31,179 nucleotides of DNA from a virus (Duplodnaviria > Heunggongvirae > Uroviricota > Caudoviricetes): IMG/VR virus record IMGVR_UViG_2609459857_000004, positions 1 through 31,179 of that record; one strand, written 5' to 3'. Position numbers and translations under genes: made by a program. The notes beneath the pieces were generated by a model that did not search any database, was not told the origin of the DNA, and saw only the letters and a list, made by a program, of their open reading frames with translations. This document shows, piece by piece, positions 1,307-26,640 of the stretch (position 1 is its first letter; the number at the start of each line of letters is the position of its first letter).

Positions 1307-3763
1307 TTAAAAATCAACCGGATTCGGGATCAATTTTTGCCAGATTGCTGAAACGTATTTTGCCTGGTGATTGGCGTCATCCAGTGCATTGTGGGGTACA
1401 CCTTCGAACGGGATAGCTGTTCTGGCATCAAAACCGATGGTTTTTCCCAGTTCAACAATTGTGCGCACGTCGCGATCGTTGCAGTAACGCCACGGGCAGG
1501 GGATCCCCTGCCGTTCATATGAACGGCGTAAAATTGCGTTGTCGAAAGTTGCACCATTGCCCCATACCTGCACGAATTTTTCATCTGAATGCTCGCTGAT
1601 GAATTCCCTGAATTGCAGCAGCGCATCATCTAATGGGATTTGATTTACCAAAATTGCAGATCTGACCTCGCTGGACTGCACCAGCCACCATTCGATTGTG
1701 CTTATGTCGACAGTGCCGCCACCGGTTTTTGCATCAATCGTTTTGCTGAACTCCGGCCCCATCTCTCCGGTTTCGGGATCAAAAAATTTACCGCCAATAG
1801 AGTTGATTGGTGCATCAGGGTTTGTTCCCATCGTTTCAAGGTCGACCGAAAGATGATTCCATACTCTGCTGGTGGATGTGATAACGTGATGACTGTTCAC
1901 CGTAATTAAGGGATCCGCCGTCTCGCCAGTTTCACTATCGCTGGCGTTGTCCTGAGCGCTGCCAGCATTCTCCTTGTGTGGATGTTCAGCGCCTTCCATT
2001 TCCTCCGGATCATTTTCCTGAACTTCAACCTGATTCTCTTCATTGAATGTTTCCTGGTATGTTGCGTCGCCCATCACCGCGCCACAATCAGGGCAGTTGC
2101 CGCCACCGCTCTGACCGCAGGCGGTGCAGACTTTTTCCGGTTCCTGTTGCGCTACTGGTTCGGATTGTTTCGTTTCTGGCTCGTTTTGTAACGCATTTGA
2201 GCTGTTTTGTTCCTCTTTCTGGTCGTTCTGTTCCGTTTCTTGCTGGTTCTGGTTCACAGAATCGCGGGTTTCAATCCCCTTCACCCATTTCGGATCATTC
2301 GGGTCGCTAATCCCTGCAACAAATTCACCGCGAGAGGCCGCAAGCAACTTATCGGCGTCAGGCTGGCTGATATTGGCTGCCTGCATAATTTTGTTTACTT
2401 CGTCAGCGGTAACTTTTACCTGATTAACTGGATCTATCTGTGCCTGAGCATCCAGCGATTGCGTGTCCTGGCGATGTTCAGTTGTATCCGGTTCCATTGT
2501 TTCAGCCGTTGCCTGTTCATCTGCCATTGCGTCAGACGGTTGTGATTTTTCCTCATTATTTTTTTCTTCTTCTGTCTCGCGTTCAGCAGCCAGTTCGCGG
2601 TTAACTTCTTCCAGGATATCTTTTTCCGGTGTATGTCGTGCAGCAGCGAGAGTTTCCTCGGTAGGGTTCTCGTGATCAGTCTCCGTTAAATAGGCGTTGA
2701 TATACCCCTGAAGGCGTCCCGGGTAATGATAAAACTCAGGGTGTGCGCTCCGGATAAGTGCAAAAATAGCGGCGCGGGAATAATCCAGGATACCCGGGAT
2801 TGCGCGAAGTGCTGCGGACCATTCTTTGAACGGACTTTCTTTCTTCTGGACGACTTCTTTTGCGCGACGATAAACGCTGCCCGGAATTTCATAAATATTA
2901 AAATCCATCGGAAGTGTGGCCGCTGCAATCTCCACATCCAGCGTATCGAAGGTGTGTACTAAATTCGGATTGCGATCGGTTTTGTTCCCTCCACCGGCAT
3001 TAGCGCCGGAAGCCGTGCGGGTGATACGAGAAACACGATTTCCTTTCATCCACTCTTTTGTCAGCAGACCGCGATCGGTGTAGTCAGCGCCCAGGTATGC
3101 TTCGAAAAAAGCAGTCATTAGCCCCAGGCCTGAATTGCCAGGATTAGGGAAAACTTTGTCAGTATCACGCACCAGTTTGTGGAGATCGCGAATTTCCAGT
3201 GGATCGAGCAGACTGGTTTTATGCGAAATAGCGAGGGCAGTAACAGCTGGTAGTTCTTCAGCCCGTGCAATGTGTAATGCCTGGAGTTCGTCGCGTGAAA
3301 CGTGCGTTACCGGTTTTTCGCTGCCACGTTGAGCAAGCCAGCGAATGGGCAGTTCCTGACCGGAAACCGGCAGGAGCATGTTCTCCTCAATCTCAGCCAT
3401 GTCTTCGCCGTTGACGTTGGTATTGTCAGTGCTGGCTGGTTTATCCTGAACAGAGGGCGAGGGCGCGATAAGTACCATTGTGATACCATCTTCTCCGCCT
3501 TTTTCGTATCGGTTGCAGAATTCGGTATCAAACACGCCTTCCGGAGGAAGGTCATTCACAACGGGTAAATGGACGCGAACAGGTTTTTTAAAATCCTCTT
3601 CGTCAAATCCGGCATCGTCCATTGCGACAACACCGCGTGATATTGCAACCGATAATTTTTTTGCTGTGCGCCAGTAAAAACCGCCTTTAATCCCAAGACG
3701 TTTTCTGACTTTGTCATTTTTGGCTTCGTAATATAGTGCAATTTCTTCTTTATCAGCGCTCAT
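1307..3763 (-). CDS. RecE-like prophage exonuclease with C-terminal DEDDh (DnaQ-like) 3'-5' exonuclease domain
   Basis: 818-aa ORF with RBS GAGG upstream of ATG; C-terminal ~190 aa carry Exo I (VDLETMG), Exo II ([11 protein letters not shown]) and Exo III (HNALDDA) motifs; N-terminal region recalled as RecE-like, with an acidic low-complexity E/Q/N-rich linker. Confidence 0.65.
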
Positions 3764-5836: not shown

Positions 5837-6253
5837 TTATTTCTGGTGGGACTGAATCATGCTCAAGACATCGCCTTTGAGTTGCTCCAGTTCTTCTATC
5901 TGAGATTTAATAGAAATAAGCAAGCGTAGTTTTTCTGTTTCCGGTAACTGATTGAAAAGTGAAAGCAAAAGCTTTTCATTGTCATCCAGTTCTCGTCCGG
6001 AAAAAGTCTCAGCATGAAGCTCCCCCTGTGCTGTTGAATCTGGTGACATGAAAAACCAGTGTTCTGCTTTACCTGCTGCCGCGGCTAGGCGTTTTAGCCC
6101 TTGCCCTCTGGGAAGAGATTTACCTTTAGCCCATTGCTGGACGGCTTGCGGAGATACCATCGCGTGCTTGGCTATGTCGGATAAGTTCCAGTTTTTTTCG
6201 TCCTGCAACAGCTTTAGGCGGTAAACAAGATTTGGGTGTTTTACGTTGTCCAT
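5837..6253 (-). CDS. prophage repressor, HTH XRE-family (DicA/CI-like, no peptidase domain)
   Basis: 138-aa ORF with N-terminal HTH-like segment (LSDIAKHAMVSPQAVQQWAKGKSLP); divergent from a Cro-like gene across an operator-bearing intergenic region; no strong SD. Confidence 0.75.
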   Translation of the reverse strand: MDNVKHPNLVYRLKLLQDEKNWNLSDIAKHAMVSPQAVQQWAKGKSLPRGQGLKRLAAAAGKAEHWFFMSPDSTAQGELHAETFSGRELDDNEKLLLSLFNQLPETEKLRLLISIKSQIEELEQLKGDVLSMIQSHQK

Positions 6254-6361
6254 TTAGTCATTTTACAAGCTTTGCTTTCATATGGCATTGGAATTGTTTT
6301 AATGTTGCTATTGAAAGAAAATCTTTTTTGATGTAGAAATTCTTTCAATATGGAGGTGTAA
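6254..6361. promoter_or_regulatory. immunity switch region: divergent promoters and operators
   Basis: TTGAAAGAA (6311-6319) and inverted copy TTCTTTCAA (6340-6348) flank a candidate rightward promoter TTGAAA-17-TAGAAA; GGAGG RBS precedes the Cro-like ATG at 6362. Confidence 0.55.
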
Positions 6362-6640
6362 ATGAGTCACGTTTTGAAAAGCAAGATTACGAAAATCATG
6401 AATCAATCAGAAATTGCTAAACATCTAGGAGTTAAGTCTCAGGCTGTAAGTGGATGGCTCAACTTCACTGGGGTTATACCAGCAGATCGAGTCATTCCAT
6501 TGAGTCGAGTTCTTGACTGGCAAGTTACTCCCCACGAACTTCGCCCTGACATTTATCCCAACCCAACAGATGGACTACCTTGTGAAAATAAGTGTATGTC
6601 GAATGAATCACTGGCGGTGAACAATGATATTCACTCCTGA
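6362..6640 (+). CDS. Cro-like / YdaS-family HTH regulator
   Basis: 92-aa ORF with GGAGG RBS; HTH-like SEIAKHLGVKSQAVSGW and an ELRPDI motif recalled from YdaS-type Cro proteins; divergent from the repressor. Confidence 0.65.
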   Translation: MSHVLKSKITKIMNQSEIAKHLGVKSQAVSGWLNFTGVIPADRVIPLSRVLDWQVTPHELRPDIYPNPTDGLPCENKCMSNESLAVNNDIHS

Positions 6641-7145
6641 GCAGGCTCGCGAGGCTCTGGATGCCTGGGTATGCCGACCAGGAATGACGCAGGAGCAGGC
6701 GACGATATTAATCACGGAAGCATTCTGGGCTCTGAAAGAACGCCCGAACATCGATGTTCATCGCGTCACGTTTGATGATGGCGCGGTTGATCAACGGGCG
6801 CTGGGCGTTAACAGGGTGAAGATATTCGAACGCTGGAAAGCTATCGACACCAGGGATAAGCGTGAAAAATTCACGGCGCTGATTCCGGCAATTATGGAGG
6901 CTATCCGGATCAGCGATTTCAGGTTGTATTGTGAAATTACTGACGGAAAAAGCATTACGTACATGATCGCCGGGTTAAACAAAGAATATGGCGATGTGGT
7001 GGAGTCCGGGCTGCTTTTTGCGGATCCAGCTGTTGTGGAACGTGAGACTGACGAGCTTATAGAAAAAGCCATTGCTTTCAAGCGTGCGTATCGTCAGCAA
7101 TATCAACAAAAAGTCGGATGGAATTATGAGTCTTCTTTTTGCTGA
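6624..7145 (+). CDS. hypothetical early regulatory protein (possibly YdaT/CII-like)
   Basis: 173-aa ORF overlapping the Cro-like stop; sits in the CII position; functional assignment is by position only. Confidence 0.4.
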   Translation: MIFTPEQAREALDAWVCRPGMTQEQATILITEAFWALKERPNIDVHRVTFDDGAVDQRALGVNRVKIFERWKAIDTRDKREKFTALIPAIMEAIRISDFRLYCEITDGKSITYMIAGLNKEYGDVVESGLLFADPAVVERETDELIEKAIAFKRAYRQQYQQKVGWNYESSFC

Positions 7146-8091
7146 ACGCCCACTGGTTATTAACACGCAGCTGGCGATGAAAATTGGTCTGAACGAAGCC
7201 ATCGTGTTGCAGCAGCTGCATTACTGGTTGAGAGATACCGGTTCCGGCATGGAATGTGATGGTGTTCGCTGGATTTATAACACAACAGAACAATGGCTGG
7301 AACAGTTCCCGTTCTGGTCAGAGTCAACGTTAAAACGCGCATTTGCAAGTCTGAAAGCGCTGGGGCTTTTGCGTTGCGAAAAGCTCAACAAATCAAAGCG
7401 TGACATGACTAATTTTTACACGATTAATTACGAGAGCGAGCTTTTAGATGGTGGCAAAGTGAGCGAATCCATCAGGTCAAAATGCGCCGCTCCATCAGGT
7501 CAAAATGACACGATGGAAGAGGCCAAAATGACACGCTCCATTGGTTCAAAACGACACAATGTCATCGGGTCAAAATGGCCTGATGATCTTACAGAGAATA
7601 CAACAGAGATTACTACAGAGAATAAAAACACTTCTCGTCCGGAAGCTTTGCAACCGGACATGCAGACGGCTGAACAGGATTTTTTGACCCGACATCCTGA
7701 CGCGGTTGTGTTCAGTGCGAAAAAACGCCAGTGGGGCAGCCAGGAAGATTTAGCGTGTGCGCAGTGGATCTGGGGACGAATCGTGAGTCTTTACGAGCAG
7801 GCTGCCAGCGATGATGGCGAAATCATGCGACCGAAAGAACCCAACTGGACTGCATGGGCCAATGATGTGCGCACAATGCGGATGCTGGATGGCAGAACTC
7901 ACAGACAAATTTGCGAAATGTTTGGTCGGGTGCAGCGGGATCCCTTCTGGGTAAAAAACGTCATGAGCCCGTCAAAGCTTCGCGAAAAATGGGATGAGCT
8001 GGTTATTCGTCTGGGGCGTTCGCCTGTACAGCGTTGTGTGAATCACATTTCTGAACCGGATACCGAAATTCCGCCGGGCTTCAGGGGGTAA
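7126..8091 (+). CDS. phage replication initiation protein (O-like replisome organizer)
   Basis: 322 aa from ATG 7126; N-terminus resembles phage replisome-organizer N-terminal domains; contains in-frame origin iterons, as lambda O does. Confidence 0.65.
   Translation: MSLLFAERPLVINTQLAMKIGLNEAIVLQQLHYWLRDTGSGMECDGVRWIYNTTEQWLEQFPFWSESTLKRAFASLKALGLLRCEKLNKSKRDMTNFYTINYESELLDGGKVSESIRSKCAAPSGQNDTMEEAKMTRSIGSKRHNVIGSKWPDDLTENTTEITTENKNTSRPEALQPDMQTAEQDFLTRHPDAVVFSAKKRQWGSQEDLACAQWIWGRIVSLYEQAASDDGEIMRPKEPNWTAWANDVRTMRMLDGRTHRQICEMFGRVQRDPFWVKNVMSPSKLREKWDELVIRLGRSPVQRCVNHISEPDTEIPPGFRG
7468..7640. repeat. putative replication origin: five iterons plus AT-rich repeats, inside the O-like gene
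   Basis: GGTCAAAATG-like motif at 7474, 7497, 7521, 7544 and 7568 (about 23.5-bp periodicity), followed by an A/T-rich stretch with ACAGAGAAT repeats. Confidence 0.6.
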
Positions 8092-8133
8092 GTGTTGATT
8101 TGAGGTTATGAAGTTATTTTCTCAGGAGAGTTT

Positions 8134-8535
8134 ATGGGGACTATTTATACCGAAGAACAGCGGGAAAGATTACAGCGTCATATCGTTGACCTTGTGCGTA
8201 AAAACGGGCGTATGACAATGCCACAACTGGCATCGGCAACATATGCTTCACATGATTCCATTCGCCGGTACCTGAAGATGCTGGTGAGCCAGGGCGAAGT
8301 GTATGTTGTCAGCGGAAAAGGGGTATTTCTTTCAGAGAGGGTTTACCGTGAATGGCTGGCAAGTTCGGCAAGAAAAGCAAGGGTTATCCGCAAACCAGCA
8401 CAAAAACAGGGTAAGGCAGGAGCACAACCCTACGACCGGCACCAGAACATAATTTGCCGTGAGTGCCGTCAGAGTGAGGTTATGCAGCGTGTACTGGCGT
8501 TCTATCAGGGAGATTTTCAGGAGGTGATGGAGTGA
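8134..8535 (+). CDS. hypothetical protein, possible winged-helix DNA-binding
   Basis: 133-aa ORF with AGGAGAG RBS; basic central region, CxxC near C-terminus. Confidence 0.45.
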   Translation: MGTIYTEEQRERLQRHIVDLVRKNGRMTMPQLASATYASHDSIRRYLKMLVSQGEVYVVSGKGVFLSERVYREWLASSARKARVIRKPAQKQGKAGAQPYDRHQNIICRECRQSEVMQRVLAFYQGDFQEVME

Positions 8536-8837
8536 GGGTAAGGGTTTATATCGCTGGTCCGATGACCGGGTATAAAAATTTCAACCGTGAGGCGTTCCAC
8601 AATGCGGAAGAGGAACTGAAACGGGAAGGGCATACAGTCTTAAACCCGGCAGTACTTCCAGACGGGCTGACACAGCCACACTACATGGATATTTGTATGG
8701 CAATGATTCGTTGTGTGGATGCGATTTACATGCTGAAAGGCTGGCAGCGGTCAGCAGGTGCTAAAGCAGAACTGGCGCTGGCGGAGAAACTGGGGCATGC
8801 AGTTATTTTCCAGGAGGCAACCAGTGAGCAAGATTGA
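8532..8837 (+). CDS. DUF4406-like (nucleoside 2-deoxyribosyltransferase-fold) protein
   Basis: 101-aa ORF, GTG start overlapping previous stop (GTGA) with AGGAGG RBS; N-terminal RVYIAGPMTG motif recalled from the DUF4406 family. Confidence 0.5.
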   Translation: MRVRVYIAGPMTGYKNFNREAFHNAEEELKREGHTVLNPAVLPDGLTQPHYMDICMAMIRCVDAIYMLKGWQRSAGAKAELALAEKLGHAVIFQEATSEQD

Positions 8838-9333
8838 CTATCAGGCACTGCGTGAGGCGGCAGAAGCAATAAAAATAGCAGCCACACCACAAAAATTGCT
8901 GGCATTTCGTATGAAGGTCACACCTCAGGTTGTGCTGGCATTACTGGATGAACTGGAAAGAAACCAGCAATACATAAAACGCCGCGATCAGGAGAACGAG
9001 GAAATTGCGCTAACGGTAGGGAAGCTGCGTGTTGAGCTGGAAGCCGCAGAGAAGCGCATTGCAGAACTGGAAGCACGGGAAATAAAACCAGCCAAAGGCG
9101 AAGTTCTTGTCGTTGTTTCTGGTTTTACTGGTTGCGGAAAAAGCGCCATTGCCGGGGAAATAGAAATCGCGATGAAGGCTATTGGTGTACCGGTTAAGTG
9201 GACTAATGGCGATGCAGAAAAGCGCATGACTGGCGCTGACTGGCTGACAGCAATTGAGATGTACAAACCAACTGTGCGCATTGTGGAAGTTAATGTGCCA
9301 CGCGTCGCTGGCATTCGCATCAAAGGAGAGTGA
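8824..9333 (+). CDS. Ead/Ea22-like family protein
   Basis: GTG 8824 with AGGAGG RBS; N-terminus MSKIDYQALREAAE resembles Ea22-like proteins of E. coli prophages; coiled-coil middle. Confidence 0.45.
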   Translation: MSKIDYQALREAAEAIKIAATPQKLLAFRMKVTPQVVLALLDELERNQQYIKRRDQENEEIALTVGKLRVELEAAEKRIAELEAREIKPAKGEVLVVVSGFTGCGKSAIAGEIEIAMKAIGVPVKWTNGDAEKRMTGADWLTAIEMYKPTVRIVEVNVPRVAGIRIKGE

Positions 9334-10639: not shown

Positions 10640-10957
10640 TTAACAGATTGACTGAATTCCGTTTTTCTCAACCACAGAAAGCAAACGAAGGGCAGGGCCA
10701 CCAGGGCGCTTTATTCCCCTTTCCCAGTCTGAAATGAGGTTTTTACTGACATTAAGATATCTGGCGAAAACAGGTTGAGACAGATGCTCGCGCTCGCGAA
10801 GTGCCCGGATTCTTTCTGGCGACATTGTTGGCGCTGGTTGCAGACAAAGTTCATCAAACTCTCTCATAGTTTGTTTTGTTACTGCGCCAATATCCTGAAG
10901 TGACTCCATCATTTCATGTACGGATGCAAGCGCATCACTGCGGTAATTTTTACTCAT
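10640..10957 (-). CDS. higA: HigA-2-like antitoxin (C-terminal HTH)
   Basis: 105-aa ORF; C-terminal HTH (LSQPVFARYLNVSKNLISDWERG); ATG overlaps the toxin stop (ATGAGTAA), GGAGGT RBS inside the toxin 3' end; toxin-first gene order. Confidence 0.7.
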   Translation of the reverse strand: MSKNYRSDALASVHEMMESLQDIGAVTKQTMREFDELCLQPAPTMSPERIRALREREHLSQPVFARYLNVSKNLISDWERGIKRPGGPALRLLSVVEKNGIQSIC

Positions 10958-11333
10958 TGGGTACCTCCGTAAACTGACCCTGCAGGATCAATTGCGCCAG
11001 TTGTTCATCAGTAAGATTGAGAACGTGATGCGCAGCTTTTCGAAATGCGTTTTCCTCGATGGTTGTAATATTTTCTCTCTCATTCTTTGCGTACGCATAG
11101 ATGAAAAAAGCCTTTTCTGCGACGCGGTAAAAAATTATTGTCCTATAACCGCCTGATTTACCGCCACCTCTTCGGGCTAATCGCTGCTTAATGACACCAC
11201 TACCCAAATCTGCGGATATGAGTCCCTTATCAGCTAGTTCCACGACTTCTCGCAGAGCTTTATTGGAAATCCGATTTTTTCGTGCGAAGCGTTCAAACCA
11301 GGCATTTTTGAAAATGCGCATGTTTGGTTCCAT
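10950..11333 (-). CDS. higB: HigB-2 / RelE-like type II toxin
   Basis: Motifs GSGVIKQRLARRGGGKSGGYRTIIFY...FFIYAYAKNE match the recalled HigB-2 family pattern; start ambiguous (GTG 11360, ATG 11333, ATG 11321), none with a clear SD. Confidence 0.7.
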   Translation of the reverse strand: MEPNMRIFKNAWFERFARKNRISNKALREVVELADKGLISADLGSGVIKQRLARRGGGKSGGYRTIIFYRVAEKAFFIYAYAKNERENITTIEENAFRKAAHHVLNLTDEQLAQLILQGQFTEVPNE

Positions 11334-11423
11334 ATCGTTGTGTAATACATAGTGTGACACAATTAAATAGGATGGGCAATATACATACAGGGGGGCTTGC
11401 TAAGGGATGGCAGCTCAAAAAAC

Positions 11424-24682: not shown

Positions 24683-25006
24683 ATGCTCCTGAAAGAAGAG
24701 GAAATTAAATCTCACCTCCGGCTCGATGATGGTTTGTACAGTGACGGCGATTTTCTGAAATTGCTGGCACAGGCGGTACAGAAAAGAACAGAGACATACC
24801 TGAACAGGAAGTTGTATGCACCGGAAGAGACGATTCCGGAAGACGATCCTGACGGGATGCATCTGACTGATGATGTTCGTCTGGCAATGCTGATGCTGGT
24901 CAGTCATTTTTATGAAAATCGCTCAACGATCACCGATGTGGAGAAACTGGAAACGCCAATGAGTTTCAGATGGCTTGCTGGCCCTTACAGGATTGTCCCA
25001 CTATGA
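24683..25006 (+). CDS. head-tail connector protein (gp6-like)
   Basis: 107-aa acidic ORF with AGGAGG RBS, first gene after the capsid gene. Confidence 0.55.
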   Translation: MLLKEEEIKSHLRLDDGLYSDGDFLKLLAQAVQKRTETYLNRKLYAPEETIPEDDPDGMHLTDDVRLAMLMLVSHFYENRSTITDVEKLETPMSFRWLAGPYRIVPL

Positions 25007-25419
25007 AAATCAGGCAAAGTCAGACCAGTGCCACTTACCTTTTACCGGATCCCGGAGAGCTGAATCGCCGGATAAAGATCCGCCTTCGTGTGGATGAACC
25101 CACCGCTGATTTTGGTACGGAGCCAACGTATCCGGAGTCGTTTGATGTCTGGGCAAAGGTGGCTCAGCCAGGCGCTGCCGCTTATCAGGGCTCAGTGCAG
25201 ACAGAAAATATCGTTACGCATTATTTTACGATCCGTTTCCGTCACGACATCACGGCAGATCATGAGGTGGTTTATTACGGTCAGGAGTACCGGATCCGGC
25301 GAATACGCGACCTGAACGGTCAGCGGCGTTTTTTATTGCTGGAATGTGAAGAACTGCGTACAGCGCGACGACGGGGTGAATGCCATGAATCAGACAGCAT
25401 TTTTACACGTCGACTTTAA
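25003..25419 (+). CDS. head closure / head-tail joining protein
   Basis: ATG 25003 overlaps previous stop (ATGA); 138 aa; assigned by position in the head-completion cluster. Confidence 0.45.
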   Translation: MKIRQSQTSATYLLPDPGELNRRIKIRLRVDEPTADFGTEPTYPESFDVWAKVAQPGAAAYQGSVQTENIVTHYFTIRFRHDITADHEVVYYGQEYRIRRIRDLNGQRRFLLLECEELRTARRRGECHESDSIFTRRL

Positions 25420-25909
25420 ACAACCAAAGGAGCTGGAGTTTAATCGCGCCCGTCTGCGTCGGGCATTTGTGCAGATCGGGCGCGTTTACATGCGTGACGC
25501 CAGACGTCTGGTGATTAAACGCGGGCGTTCTGGCCCGGGAGAGAACCCGGGGTATCAGACCGGGCGTCTGGCCCGCTCCATCGGTTATTACGTTCCCAAA
25601 AAAACGACGCGTCGCCCCGGACTGATGGTGAAAATTTCCCCTGACCAGAAAAACGGGCAGGGGAATCGCCGTTTCCCTGAAGGCGCACCCTATTATCCGG
25701 CATTTCTGTATTACGGTGTTCGCCATTCAGCTTATGGAATGGATAAAAAGGATAAGCGGCAGAAGAAGCACCATTCTTCGACTTTTCGGCTGGCCCCGCG
25801 TAATAACTTTATGGCTGACGTTATTGAGCGGCGGCGTCACTGGACGCAGGAACTGTTGTCCCGTGAGTTGCAGCGTTCGTTACGTCCGGTAAAAAGGAAG
25901 CATAAATGA
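25385..25909 (+). CDS. tail completion protein (HK97 gp10-like)
   Basis: 174-aa very basic ORF from ATG 25385; overlaps both neighbours. Confidence 0.45.
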   Translation: MNQTAFLHVDFKQPKELEFNRARLRRAFVQIGRVYMRDARRLVIKRGRSGPGENPGYQTGRLARSIGYYVPKKTTRRPGLMVKISPDQKNGQGNRRFPEGAPYYPAFLYYGVRHSAYGMDKKDKRQKKHHSSTFRLAPRNNFMADVIERRRHWTQELLSRELQRSLRPVKRKHK

Positions 25910-26469
25910 AACTGACAACAATAATTGCGGCGTTGCGTGAGCGATGCCCGCGTTTTGAGAATCGTGTTGGTGGTGCGGCGCAGTTTAAGGCGATCCCTGA
26001 TGCCGGAAAACTGCGTCTGCCTGCTGCCTATGTTGTCCCCTCTGACGATGCGCCGGGGGAACAAAAATCACAGACCGATTACTGGCAGGATTTGACAGAA
26101 GGCTTCTCCGTTATTGTTGTGCTCAGCAATGAGCGTGATGAAAAAGGGCAGTGGGCAGCCTATGACGCCGTTCATGATGTCCGTAGAGAACTCTGGAAAG
26201 CCCTGCTTGGGTGGATGTCGGACCCGCAGGGGGGCGAGATTGTTTATGCCGGTGGCACCCTGCTGGATCTGAACCGTTACGAACTGTATTACCAGTTTGA
26301 TTTTACGGCGAAGCATGAAATCACGGAAGAAGACACGCGACAGGCAGAGGACGTGAATGCTCTGCCGGATTTATCCCTGCTGAGTATTGATGTGGATTAC
26401 ATCGATCCTGGTACTGGCCCGGATGGTGACTTTGAGCACCATCTGGAAATGCGTTTCCCTCAGAAATAA
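25906..26469 (+). CDS. tail-associated structural protein (tail terminator/completion-like)
   Basis: 187-aa ORF with AAGGAAG RBS, ATGA overlap with upstream gene, upstream of the sheath gene. Confidence 0.45.
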   Translation: MKLTTIIAALRERCPRFENRVGGAAQFKAIPDAGKLRLPAAYVVPSDDAPGEQKSQTDYWQDLTEGFSVIVVLSNERDEKGQWAAYDAVHDVRRELWKALLGWMSDPQGGEIVYAGGTLLDLNRYELYYQFDFTAKHEITEEDTRQAEDVNALPDLSLLSIDVDYIDPGTGPDGDFEHHLEMRFPQK

Positions 26470-26478
26470 GAGTCCTTC

Positions 26479-26640
26479 ATGTTTGTGAAACCCCTGAAAG
26501 GGCGGTCGGTTCCTGACCCTGCCCGTGGAGATCTTTTGCCTTCTGACGGGCGAAATGTGGAAGAAAACAGCTACTGGCTCCGCCGTATAGCGGCGGGTGA
26601 TGTGGTACGTGTTAAACAGGATAAGGCTAAAGAATCATGA
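26479..26640 (+). CDS. small protein preceding the tail sheath gene (DUF2635-like)
   Basis: 53-aa ORF below the track cutoff, translated manually (MFVKPLKGRSVPDPARGDLLPSDG...); stop overlaps the sheath ATG. Confidence 0.4.
   Translation: MFVKPLKGRSVPDPARGDLLPSDGRNVEENSYWLRRIAAGDVVRVKQDKAKES

Follow-up and report, generated by a model that had tools for sequence, protein, structure and literature searches.

The stretch of DNA analyzed here (31,179 nucleotides, the IMG/VR record IMGVR_UViG_2609459857_000004; hereafter "the window") comes from an Escherichia coli lambdoid phage or prophage with an immunity region of the Rac/CP-933O type, and it carries a replication initiator gene of 321 codons in which iterons and an AT-rich tract are embedded. 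How can such a phage bring a replicative helicase to its origin if it carries no gene for a helicase loader? The explanation proposed here, to which a probability of about 55% is given as a whole, is that a lambda-style origin is served by an initiator whose C-terminal tail, closely similar to that of the primosomal protein DnaT, docks helicase loaders of the DnaC type, so that DnaB-DnaC of the host would be used directly. Two open questions are joined in this way, namely how the helicase is loaded in the approximately 10% of lambdoid phages that possess O only, and how DnaT is linked to DnaB-DnaC. As for the former, 34 of 314 lambdoid phages of Enterobacterales have an O homologue only, and their replication "is not yet understood" (PMC12315714, Genome Res 2025). 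As for the latter, how DnaT recruits DnaB-DnaC is stated to be unknown (PMC13377028), and the contact between DnaT and DnaC is unidentified according to papers published in 2024-2026 (PMC13377028, PMC11087952, PMC13220808). A shared peptide offers one concrete and cheap hypothesis for both questions, and simple experiments are possible.

The initiator ends with …RCVNHISEPDTEIPPGFRG, and its last 20 residues, QRCVNHISEPDTEIPPGFRG, are identical at 14 positions (70%) to residues 160-179 of E. coli DnaT (BLASTP E 7e-8). The same tail matches PDB entries 2ru8, 6aep and 9zbt as well as positions 160-179 of the NCBIfam model NF002770, and initiator residues 298-321 are modelled as disordered by AlphaFold2 (AF2). 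A somewhat longer motif common to DnaT and the initiator tail can be written as R-D/C-[VIL]-N-x-[IV]-S-x-P-D-x-x-I-P-x-G-F-R-G. Does the likeness extend further into the protein? A full-length match to NF002770 was not obtained, since the score of 16.5 bits stays below the cut-off, which is 201, and when the three-helix C-domain with which DnaT binds single-stranded DNA was sought in the initiator, hhalign aligned just nine terminal columns. In these comparisons the tail is the sole part common to the two proteins, with their C-domains unmatched. The similarity to DnaT had been touched on already by the automated annotation "primosomal protein I" and, for an O-like protein, by the paper on DopC (PMC5509034); in the open-access literature, no paper was found in which the terminal motif, the portability of the tail or a connection with DnaC-type loaders is described, and what came up for the motif and for DnaT-like phage proteins was confined to papers on collagen and on the structure of DnaT. 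The tail is also an informative feature that was absent from the first-pass annotation of the window, which had drawn attention to the iterons and to the neighbouring genes.

The tail is portable between initiators. O protein of phage LLS has an unrelated C-domain, yet it terminates in ...DTKIPEGFRG, and the initiator of Shigella phage VIT_AJPSC, which has another N-domain, terminates in ...QIPAGFRG. Among 149 representatives of the O C-domain family at 50% identity (P0121-P0269), about 20 have the IPxGFRG tail. Other tails recur in the same family, i.e., the lambda-like NTDW[IA]xG[VL], HWNSxExWxxxL and G[IV]xVPxxEVx[LF], and this recurrence suggests that the O-family tails are interchangeable adaptor peptides for different helicase-delivery partners. 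As a separate observation, a minority of phage initiators in IMG/VR (at the loci L158, L178, L190, L097, L095, L143 and L125) bear the whole DnaT C-domain together with the tail (positions from about 83 to 179 of the DnaT hidden Markov model, E 1e-25 to 1e-44), and a DnaC-like gene comes next in some of them and not in others. These initiators bear on the direction of the transfer: the dnaT-dnaC pair may have been domesticated from such a phage module, or the reverse.

What kind of gene, then, accompanies the tail? IMG/VR was scanned for DNA that codes for D-x-x-I-P-x-G-F-R-G and continues with T as the initial base of a stop codon, and 120 stretches were sampled, 114 of which contain a genuine C-terminal tail, in about 20 or more initiator clusters. 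Of 106 tail-bearing initiators that could be scored, a DnaC-like gene comes immediately next in 57 and a loader is lacking within 3 kb in 49, while a lambda-P-like or DnaB-like gene follows none of the 106. In the clusters with no loader, the next genes encode Dam, RuvC-like, Rha, ParB-HTH or PerC-like proteins. Sampling in the reverse direction, from the loader to the open reading frame (ORF) upstream of it, gave the same picture: the tail (IPPGFRG) terminates the upstream ORF at 79 of 79 loci with a YdaV-like, DnaC-type loader, at 0 of 79 loci with lambda P, where 74 of the O proteins end in DWIYGV[DE]L instead, and at 0 of 80 loci with the DnaB-type helicase gp12 of P22. These three reverse samples are narrow, each consisting of the best 80 matches to its query and thus of sequences nearly identical to it, and the pattern-based scan of IMG/VR is the only roughly unbiased sample. 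In a further sample of 120 stretches from GTDB, about half of which are chance matches in short ORFs of unrelated phyla, the genuine tails are all in Enterobacterales and mostly belong to chromosomal dnaT followed directly by dnaC; the dnaT-dnaC operon of the host is laid out like a phage tail-bearing gene with its DnaC-type gene. In the samples examined, the tail adjoins a DnaC-type gene or no loader at all, and never a P-type or DnaB-type gene.

The window belongs to the group without a loader. All six-frame ORFs of at least 40 amino acids were searched by phmmer with DnaC, YdaV, lambda P and DnaB, and nothing was found at E<1 in the whole window, which may be less than an entire prophage with its 31 kb. 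This agrees with the earlier statement that no separate helicase-loader gene is evident, and no loader or helicase came to light either when phmmer was run in six frames on the entire genome (45 kb) of HannyBb, a plaque-forming phage with a 94% identical initiator. Remoter homologues in E. coli, Citrobacter and Salmonella are likewise of the O-only type with non-loader genes next to them. The phage of the window, as judged from these searches, encodes neither helicase nor helicase loader, a state that is already published though unexplained and is not new here. On the other hand, a loader can be present behind practically the same initiator. In E. coli NZ_CP123329, an initiator 98% identical to that of the window is followed 7 nt downstream by ydaV, and other near-identical initiators, too, occur with ydaV 4-7 nt downstream, its product being 50% identical to DnaC of the host. 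Among 80 IMG/VR loci whose C-domain is at least 95% identical to that of the window, 32 have ydaV and 45 proceed straight to the DUF977 gene. Since one and the same initiator occurs with or without ydaV, the loader is an optional accessory. The suggestion that helicase recruitment in this phage may be non-canonical is supported in part: no loader is encoded, but the O-only state had been documented, ydaV is optional, and the helicase probably arrives by way of DnaC-DnaB of the host in the ordinary manner, not by a mechanism that dispenses with a loader.

At the opposite end of this process stands the origin. Five iterons spaced by about 23.5 bp had been noticed in the window from position 7468, and five direct copies of a 23-nt unit with the core GGTCAAAATG are indeed present (7470-7492, 7493-7515, 7516-7538, 7539-7561 and 7563-7585, spaced by 23, 23, 23 and 24 nt), in concordance with Tandem Repeats Finder (TRF). 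While 7470 is the start of these five, the array begins about 20 nt earlier than had been thought if a degenerate copy at 7447-7469, called iteron 0 here, is counted; iteron 0 is nearer to the consensus in homologues, and two of them, L453 and L454, read AGGTCAAAGTGA. Matches to the core with at most one mismatch occur four times within 230 bp, and the largest such cluster in 300 Markov-1 randomisations of the window had two. The iteron consensus is an imperfect palindrome in which 16 of 23 positions are self-complementary (null 5.4 +/- 2.9; at least 15 in 0.18% of random 23-mers), and such dyad symmetry is expected of sites that bind an initiator dimer. The AT-rich repeat tract said to adjoin the iterons is also there, as three copies of the 12-nt unit ACAGAGAATACA, and it is presumed to be the unwinding element. 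An inverted iteron-like element further downstream was considered as a counterpart of the palindrome in lambda and was discounted; it is unconserved in homologues and probably not functional. No DnaA box at one mismatch or less is found within 7000-8200.

That these elements lie inside the coding sequence of the initiator, as in lambda, was correctly seen at the outset: iterons, iteron 0 and AT-rich tract are all within the ORF 7126-8091, and nt 7468-7640, comprising the iterons and the AT-rich tract, encode residues 115-172, which belong to a disordered linker. It is to be noted that the linker is where the DNA is conserved best. In a comparison of five homologues with 69-94% protein identity, the share of DNA columns that are invariant is 63% in the part for the N-domain and 55% in that for the C-domain, as against 72% in the iterons and 89% in the segment 7587-7660. 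Namely, the most constrained DNA of the initiator gene encodes the stretch of protein under the least constraint. In addition, where the same C-domain is joined to another N-domain, the repeats at the equivalent position are different, which is the pattern expected between an initiator and its iterons. Because the stretch encoding the linker is the best-conserved DNA and because the repeats co-vary with the N-domain, the region is better understood as an origin than as repetitive coding DNA, and on the strength of these comparisons it can be regarded as the origin from which this lambdoid phage replicates, contained in that part of the initiator gene which codes for the linker. As an origin it belongs to a known kind and is ordinary within it; even if tail docking proves wrong, it is a clean and well-delimited lambda-style example with a different initiator N-domain. 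Incidentally, phages LLS (L010 6516-6589) and VIT_AJPSC (L008 3127-3249), the initiators of which have a different N-domain, have repeats with a period of 15 bp (GTCAAAATCTGAYG) at the equivalent position of the linker, and these repeats have a TCAAAAT core in common with the iterons of the window.

The initiator itself is a composite. It is 94-98% identical to those of phage HannyBb and E. coli prophages, and a Pfam search with it returned zero matches, including none to Phage_rep_O, the N-terminal origin-binding domain of lambda O. Its N-domain, which is folded in the AF2 model, has a winged-helix fold of the RepA_N/DnaD-like type and shows no similarity to the N-terminus of lambda O upon alignment. 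Its C-domain, by contrast, is 40% identical to that of lambda O over residues 183-294 (tblastn), and phmmer connects the protein with lambda O at E 4e-24; the two C-domains are truly homologous. As the homology concerns the C-domain alone, the label "O-like" given in the first-pass annotation is right for the C-terminal half only and does not suit the N-domain. What is new here is that three parts are combined in one protein, namely an N-domain with a winged helix of the RepA_N/DnaD-like type, a C-domain of the lambda O type and a DnaT-like tail.

If these parts are put together, a route of initiation can be imagined as follows. By analogy with lambda O and with plasmid initiators of the RepA_N type, dimers of the initiator would bind the five or six dyad-symmetric 23-bp iterons via their N-domains, and the resulting nucleoprotein complex would open the adjacent AT-rich tract of 12-bp repeats. 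The disordered tail, judging from the genes with which it co-occurs, would then serve as a docking peptide for loaders of the DnaC family: if a phage DnaC paralogue is present, the tail may bring in YdaV-DnaB, and if it is absent, as in the window, the tail may bring host DnaB6-DnaC6 to the opened origin. By extension, the tail in DnaT may link the PriA-PriB-DnaT preprimosome to DnaB-DnaC. A more general formulation, which is tentative and for which the chances are rather below even, is that S-x-P-D-x-x-I-P-x-G-F-R-G-COOH is a portable docking motif for the DnaC family used across at least three unrelated C-domains (lambda-O-type, Phg_2220_C-like and DnaT-CTD-type), that it constitutes the missing link of DnaT between the preprimosome and DnaB-DnaC, and that the O-family tails (IPxGFRG, NTDWIYGVDL, HWNSxExWxxxL and others) are interchangeable adaptors that decide by which helicase-delivery system an origin is served. 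If the proposal is true, three matters would be explained: the loading of the helicase in O-only lambdoids, the coming and going of ydaV behind one initiator, and the fact that lambda O, as a user of P, bears another tail although its C-domain is homologous. A further prediction is that DnaT touches DnaC through its tail.

Several points weigh against tail docking as described. The link between the tail and DnaC is drawn from gene co-occurrence, the reverse samples are phylogenetically non-independent, being mostly close relatives (at least 90-99% identical to the query), and the AF2 model of the initiator is of modest confidence (mean pLDDT 61). The pattern would look much the same if the tail contacted DnaB directly or bound some other factor of the host. 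A cryo-EM (cryo-electron microscopy) study of 2026 proposes the N-terminal domain of DnaT, and not its tail, as the recruiter of DnaB-DnaC. Moreover, DopC, a domesticated O-like protein of Cellvibrionales with a helix-turn-helix N-terminus like that of O proteins and a "DnaT C-ter motif" ("DnaT_C motif"), is paired with the lambda-P-like DopE (PMC5509034). DopC, which is chromosomal and has no iterons, unlike the initiator of the window, would become a counter-example if it bore the tail.

Could the tail have a partner other than DnaC? Many iteron initiators contact DnaB directly, as is the case with RepA of pSC101, π of R6K and DnaA. In the same manner as domain I of DnaA and those plasmid initiators, the tail might bind the DnaB helicase itself, with DnaC or YdaV merely accompanying DnaB, and co-occurrence data cannot tell DnaC from a composite surface of DnaB and DnaC. 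What makes this unlikely is that lambda P, too, delivers DnaB of the host, and that the initiators paired with P never have the tail in the sample; the tail follows the type of loader, not the helicase. It is similarly unlikely that the tail recruits the restart machinery, i.e., PriA, PriB or PriC, with the initiator acting as a surrogate of DnaT so that a PriA-type primosome is assembled at the opened origin or at recombination intermediates. In its favour, the tail originates from a restart protein, DnaT contacts both PriA and PriB, and the richness of the window in Chi (13 sites against 1.1 expected), which resembles that of the O-only and RecBCD-aided phage LLS, hints at replication linked to recombination. 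However, the reported contacts of DnaT are made with the acidic linker (PriB) and the folded C-domain (PriA) rather than with the tail, and the perfect association of the tail with DnaC paralogues of phages, together with its absence beside P or DnaB-type genes, would be left unexplained.

A different class of explanation makes the tail irrelevant. The protein encoded downstream, DUF977 or a similar small winged-helix/PerC-like protein, might be a loader of a new kind, and a protein of this sort (approximately 130-165 residues) is found very often directly after the replication gene or genes, no matter whether a DnaC paralogue is present or not (for example, 8134-8535 in the window, 3990-4484 in L453, 3987-4430 in L454, and the downstream ORFs of L093, L113 and L169). 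Nevertheless, DUF977 follows ydaV just as well in modules with a loader, and it is missing from modules of the LLS type, in which the Dam methylase gene comes directly next. The three genes downstream of the initiator had been described as a 133-aa protein, a DUF4406-like one and an Ea22-like one with no resemblance to P or DnaC-type loaders, and Pfam bears this out by assigning them to DUF977, DUF4406 and Ead/Ea22. The 133-aa product, for which a search for domains interacting with DnaB or DnaC had been recommended, is a DUF977 winged helix with no ATPase or known helicase-binding domain. DUF977 and the other downstream genes were accordingly rejected as loaders for want of a supporting domain, and the idea is considered quite improbable. 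Least probable, with little to recommend it, is that the window is a decayed prophage remnant from which ydaV was deleted and replication lost. The near-identical initiators with ydaV 4-7 nt behind them would allow such a history, while the loader-less arrangement is found in the isolated, plaque-forming phages HannyBb, PhiR42_1, mEp460 and LLS, about half of the sampled tail-bearing modules have no loader, and the DNA of the origin is strongly conserved.

With docking of DnaC-type loaders by the tail as the preferred explanation, how does the module compare with known systems? In common with ori, O and P of lambda, it has dyad-symmetric iterons followed by an AT-rich tract in the part of the initiator gene for the interdomain linker, a homologous C-domain, and a position in the operon after cro and cII. 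It differs from lambda in that its N-domain is not of the lambda O type, its five or six iterons of 23 bp are unrelated in sequence, the P gene is missing, and its terminus is IPPGFRG of the DnaT type and not ...NTDWIYGVDL as in lambda O. With a single O homologue and no helicase or loader gene, it is a member of the O-only modules, represented by phage LLS and the other lambdoids of the above survey. LLS is the one O-only lambdoid that has been studied experimentally; its mechanism was left open, and the DnaT-like tail is unmentioned there, with zero occurrences of "DnaT" (PMC12315714). O of LLS shares the terminus with the initiator of the window and is different in both N- and C-domains. 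The YdaU-YdaV modules of the Rac type have the same initiator tail, YdaS/YdaT-like genes upstream and DUF977 downstream, and the 98% identical initiator mentioned above occurs with ydaV in such a setting; the difference is that ydaV, a DnaC-like AAA+ gene, is lacking in the window. Finally, the E. coli dnaT-dnaC operon mirrors the phage modules in having a gene with the tail and then a DnaC-type gene, whereas the initiator of the window has neither the N-domain nor the three-helix C-domain of DnaT. The features of the window are collected in Table 1.

Table 1. Features of the initiator gene, its origin and the genes around it (positions in the window).
Feature	Position	Strand	Basis or remark
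Repressor	5837-6253	minus	Immunity region (5837..7145), upstream of the initiator gene
YdaS/Cro-like gene	6362-6640	+	Immunity region
YdaT/CII-like gene	6624-7145	+	Immunity region
Replication initiator gene, 321 amino acids (aa), "O-like"	7126..8091	+	phrog_391 "replication initiation O-like", E 7e-96
N-terminal winged-helix domain, aa 7-108, putative origin-binding	7144..7449	+
Degenerate iteron 0	7447..7469		23 nt upstream of iteron 1 and in phase with it
Disordered interdomain linker, aa 109-174, housing the origin	7450..7647	+	AF2 pLDDT ~25
Five 23-bp iterons, consensus CATCAGGTCAAAATGACACGATG, dyad-symmetric	7470..7585		Repeat search and TRF
AT-rich tract, three copies of the 12-nt unit (presumed unwinding element)	7590..7627		GC 0.35, A-rich top strand
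Lambda-O-type C-terminal domain, aa 175-297	7648..8016	+	AF2 helical, pLDDT 67-85
Inverted iteron-like element, 18-mer	7675..7692		83% complementary to iteron 5
DnaT-like C-terminal tail, aa 301-321, VQRCVNHISEPDTEIPPGFRG	8026..8088	+	BLASTP, PDB and NCBIfam matches
DUF977 winged-helix protein, 133 aa	8134..8535	+	PF06163, E 1e-26; HTH_24; phrog_142 "Ren-like"
DUF4406 protein (nucleoside 2-deoxyribosyltransferase-like)	8532..8837	+	PF14359, E 1e-37; phrog_355
Ead/Ea22-like protein (ORF limits)	8758..9333	+	PF13935, E 7e-21

Among annotated sequences, those nearest to the window belong to E. coli prophages and to three isolated phages, PhiR42_1, HannyBb and mEp460. The initiator gene is located downstream of the YdaS/Cro-like and YdaT/CII-like genes, all three on the plus strand, and the PHROGs label of the DUF977 protein that follows is "Ren-like exclusion protein".

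Other observations concern the window at large. None of 100 shuffles reaches the number of Chi sites (GCTGGTGG) counted over 1-31179, whose density, about one per 2.4 kb, is above that of the E. coli chromosome; examples on the plus strand are at 1868, 9893, 10550, 12240, 14577, 16797, 21036 and 24568. This richness fits the "Chi-rich lambdoid" class, which was described alongside the O-only phage LLS (PMC12315714). DnaA-box-like 9-mers (TTATCCACA, at most one mismatch) occur 14 times in the window where 6.9 are expected, the observed number being reached in none of 100 shuffles, and eight of them cluster at 24937-28949 in the region of structural genes, none being at the origin. In the nin-like region, an ORF for a toxin of the RelE/ParE family (10950-11360) and one for a helix-turn-helix antitoxin (10640-10957) form an insert on the minus strand, opposite to the surrounding genes, and the pair is likewise annotated in a related prophage (L001). 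Lastly, an ORF of 818 amino acids on the minus strand (1307-3763), which is annotated in relatives as an exonuclease or a "3'-5' exoribonuclease domain" protein, sits at the position of a recombination module.

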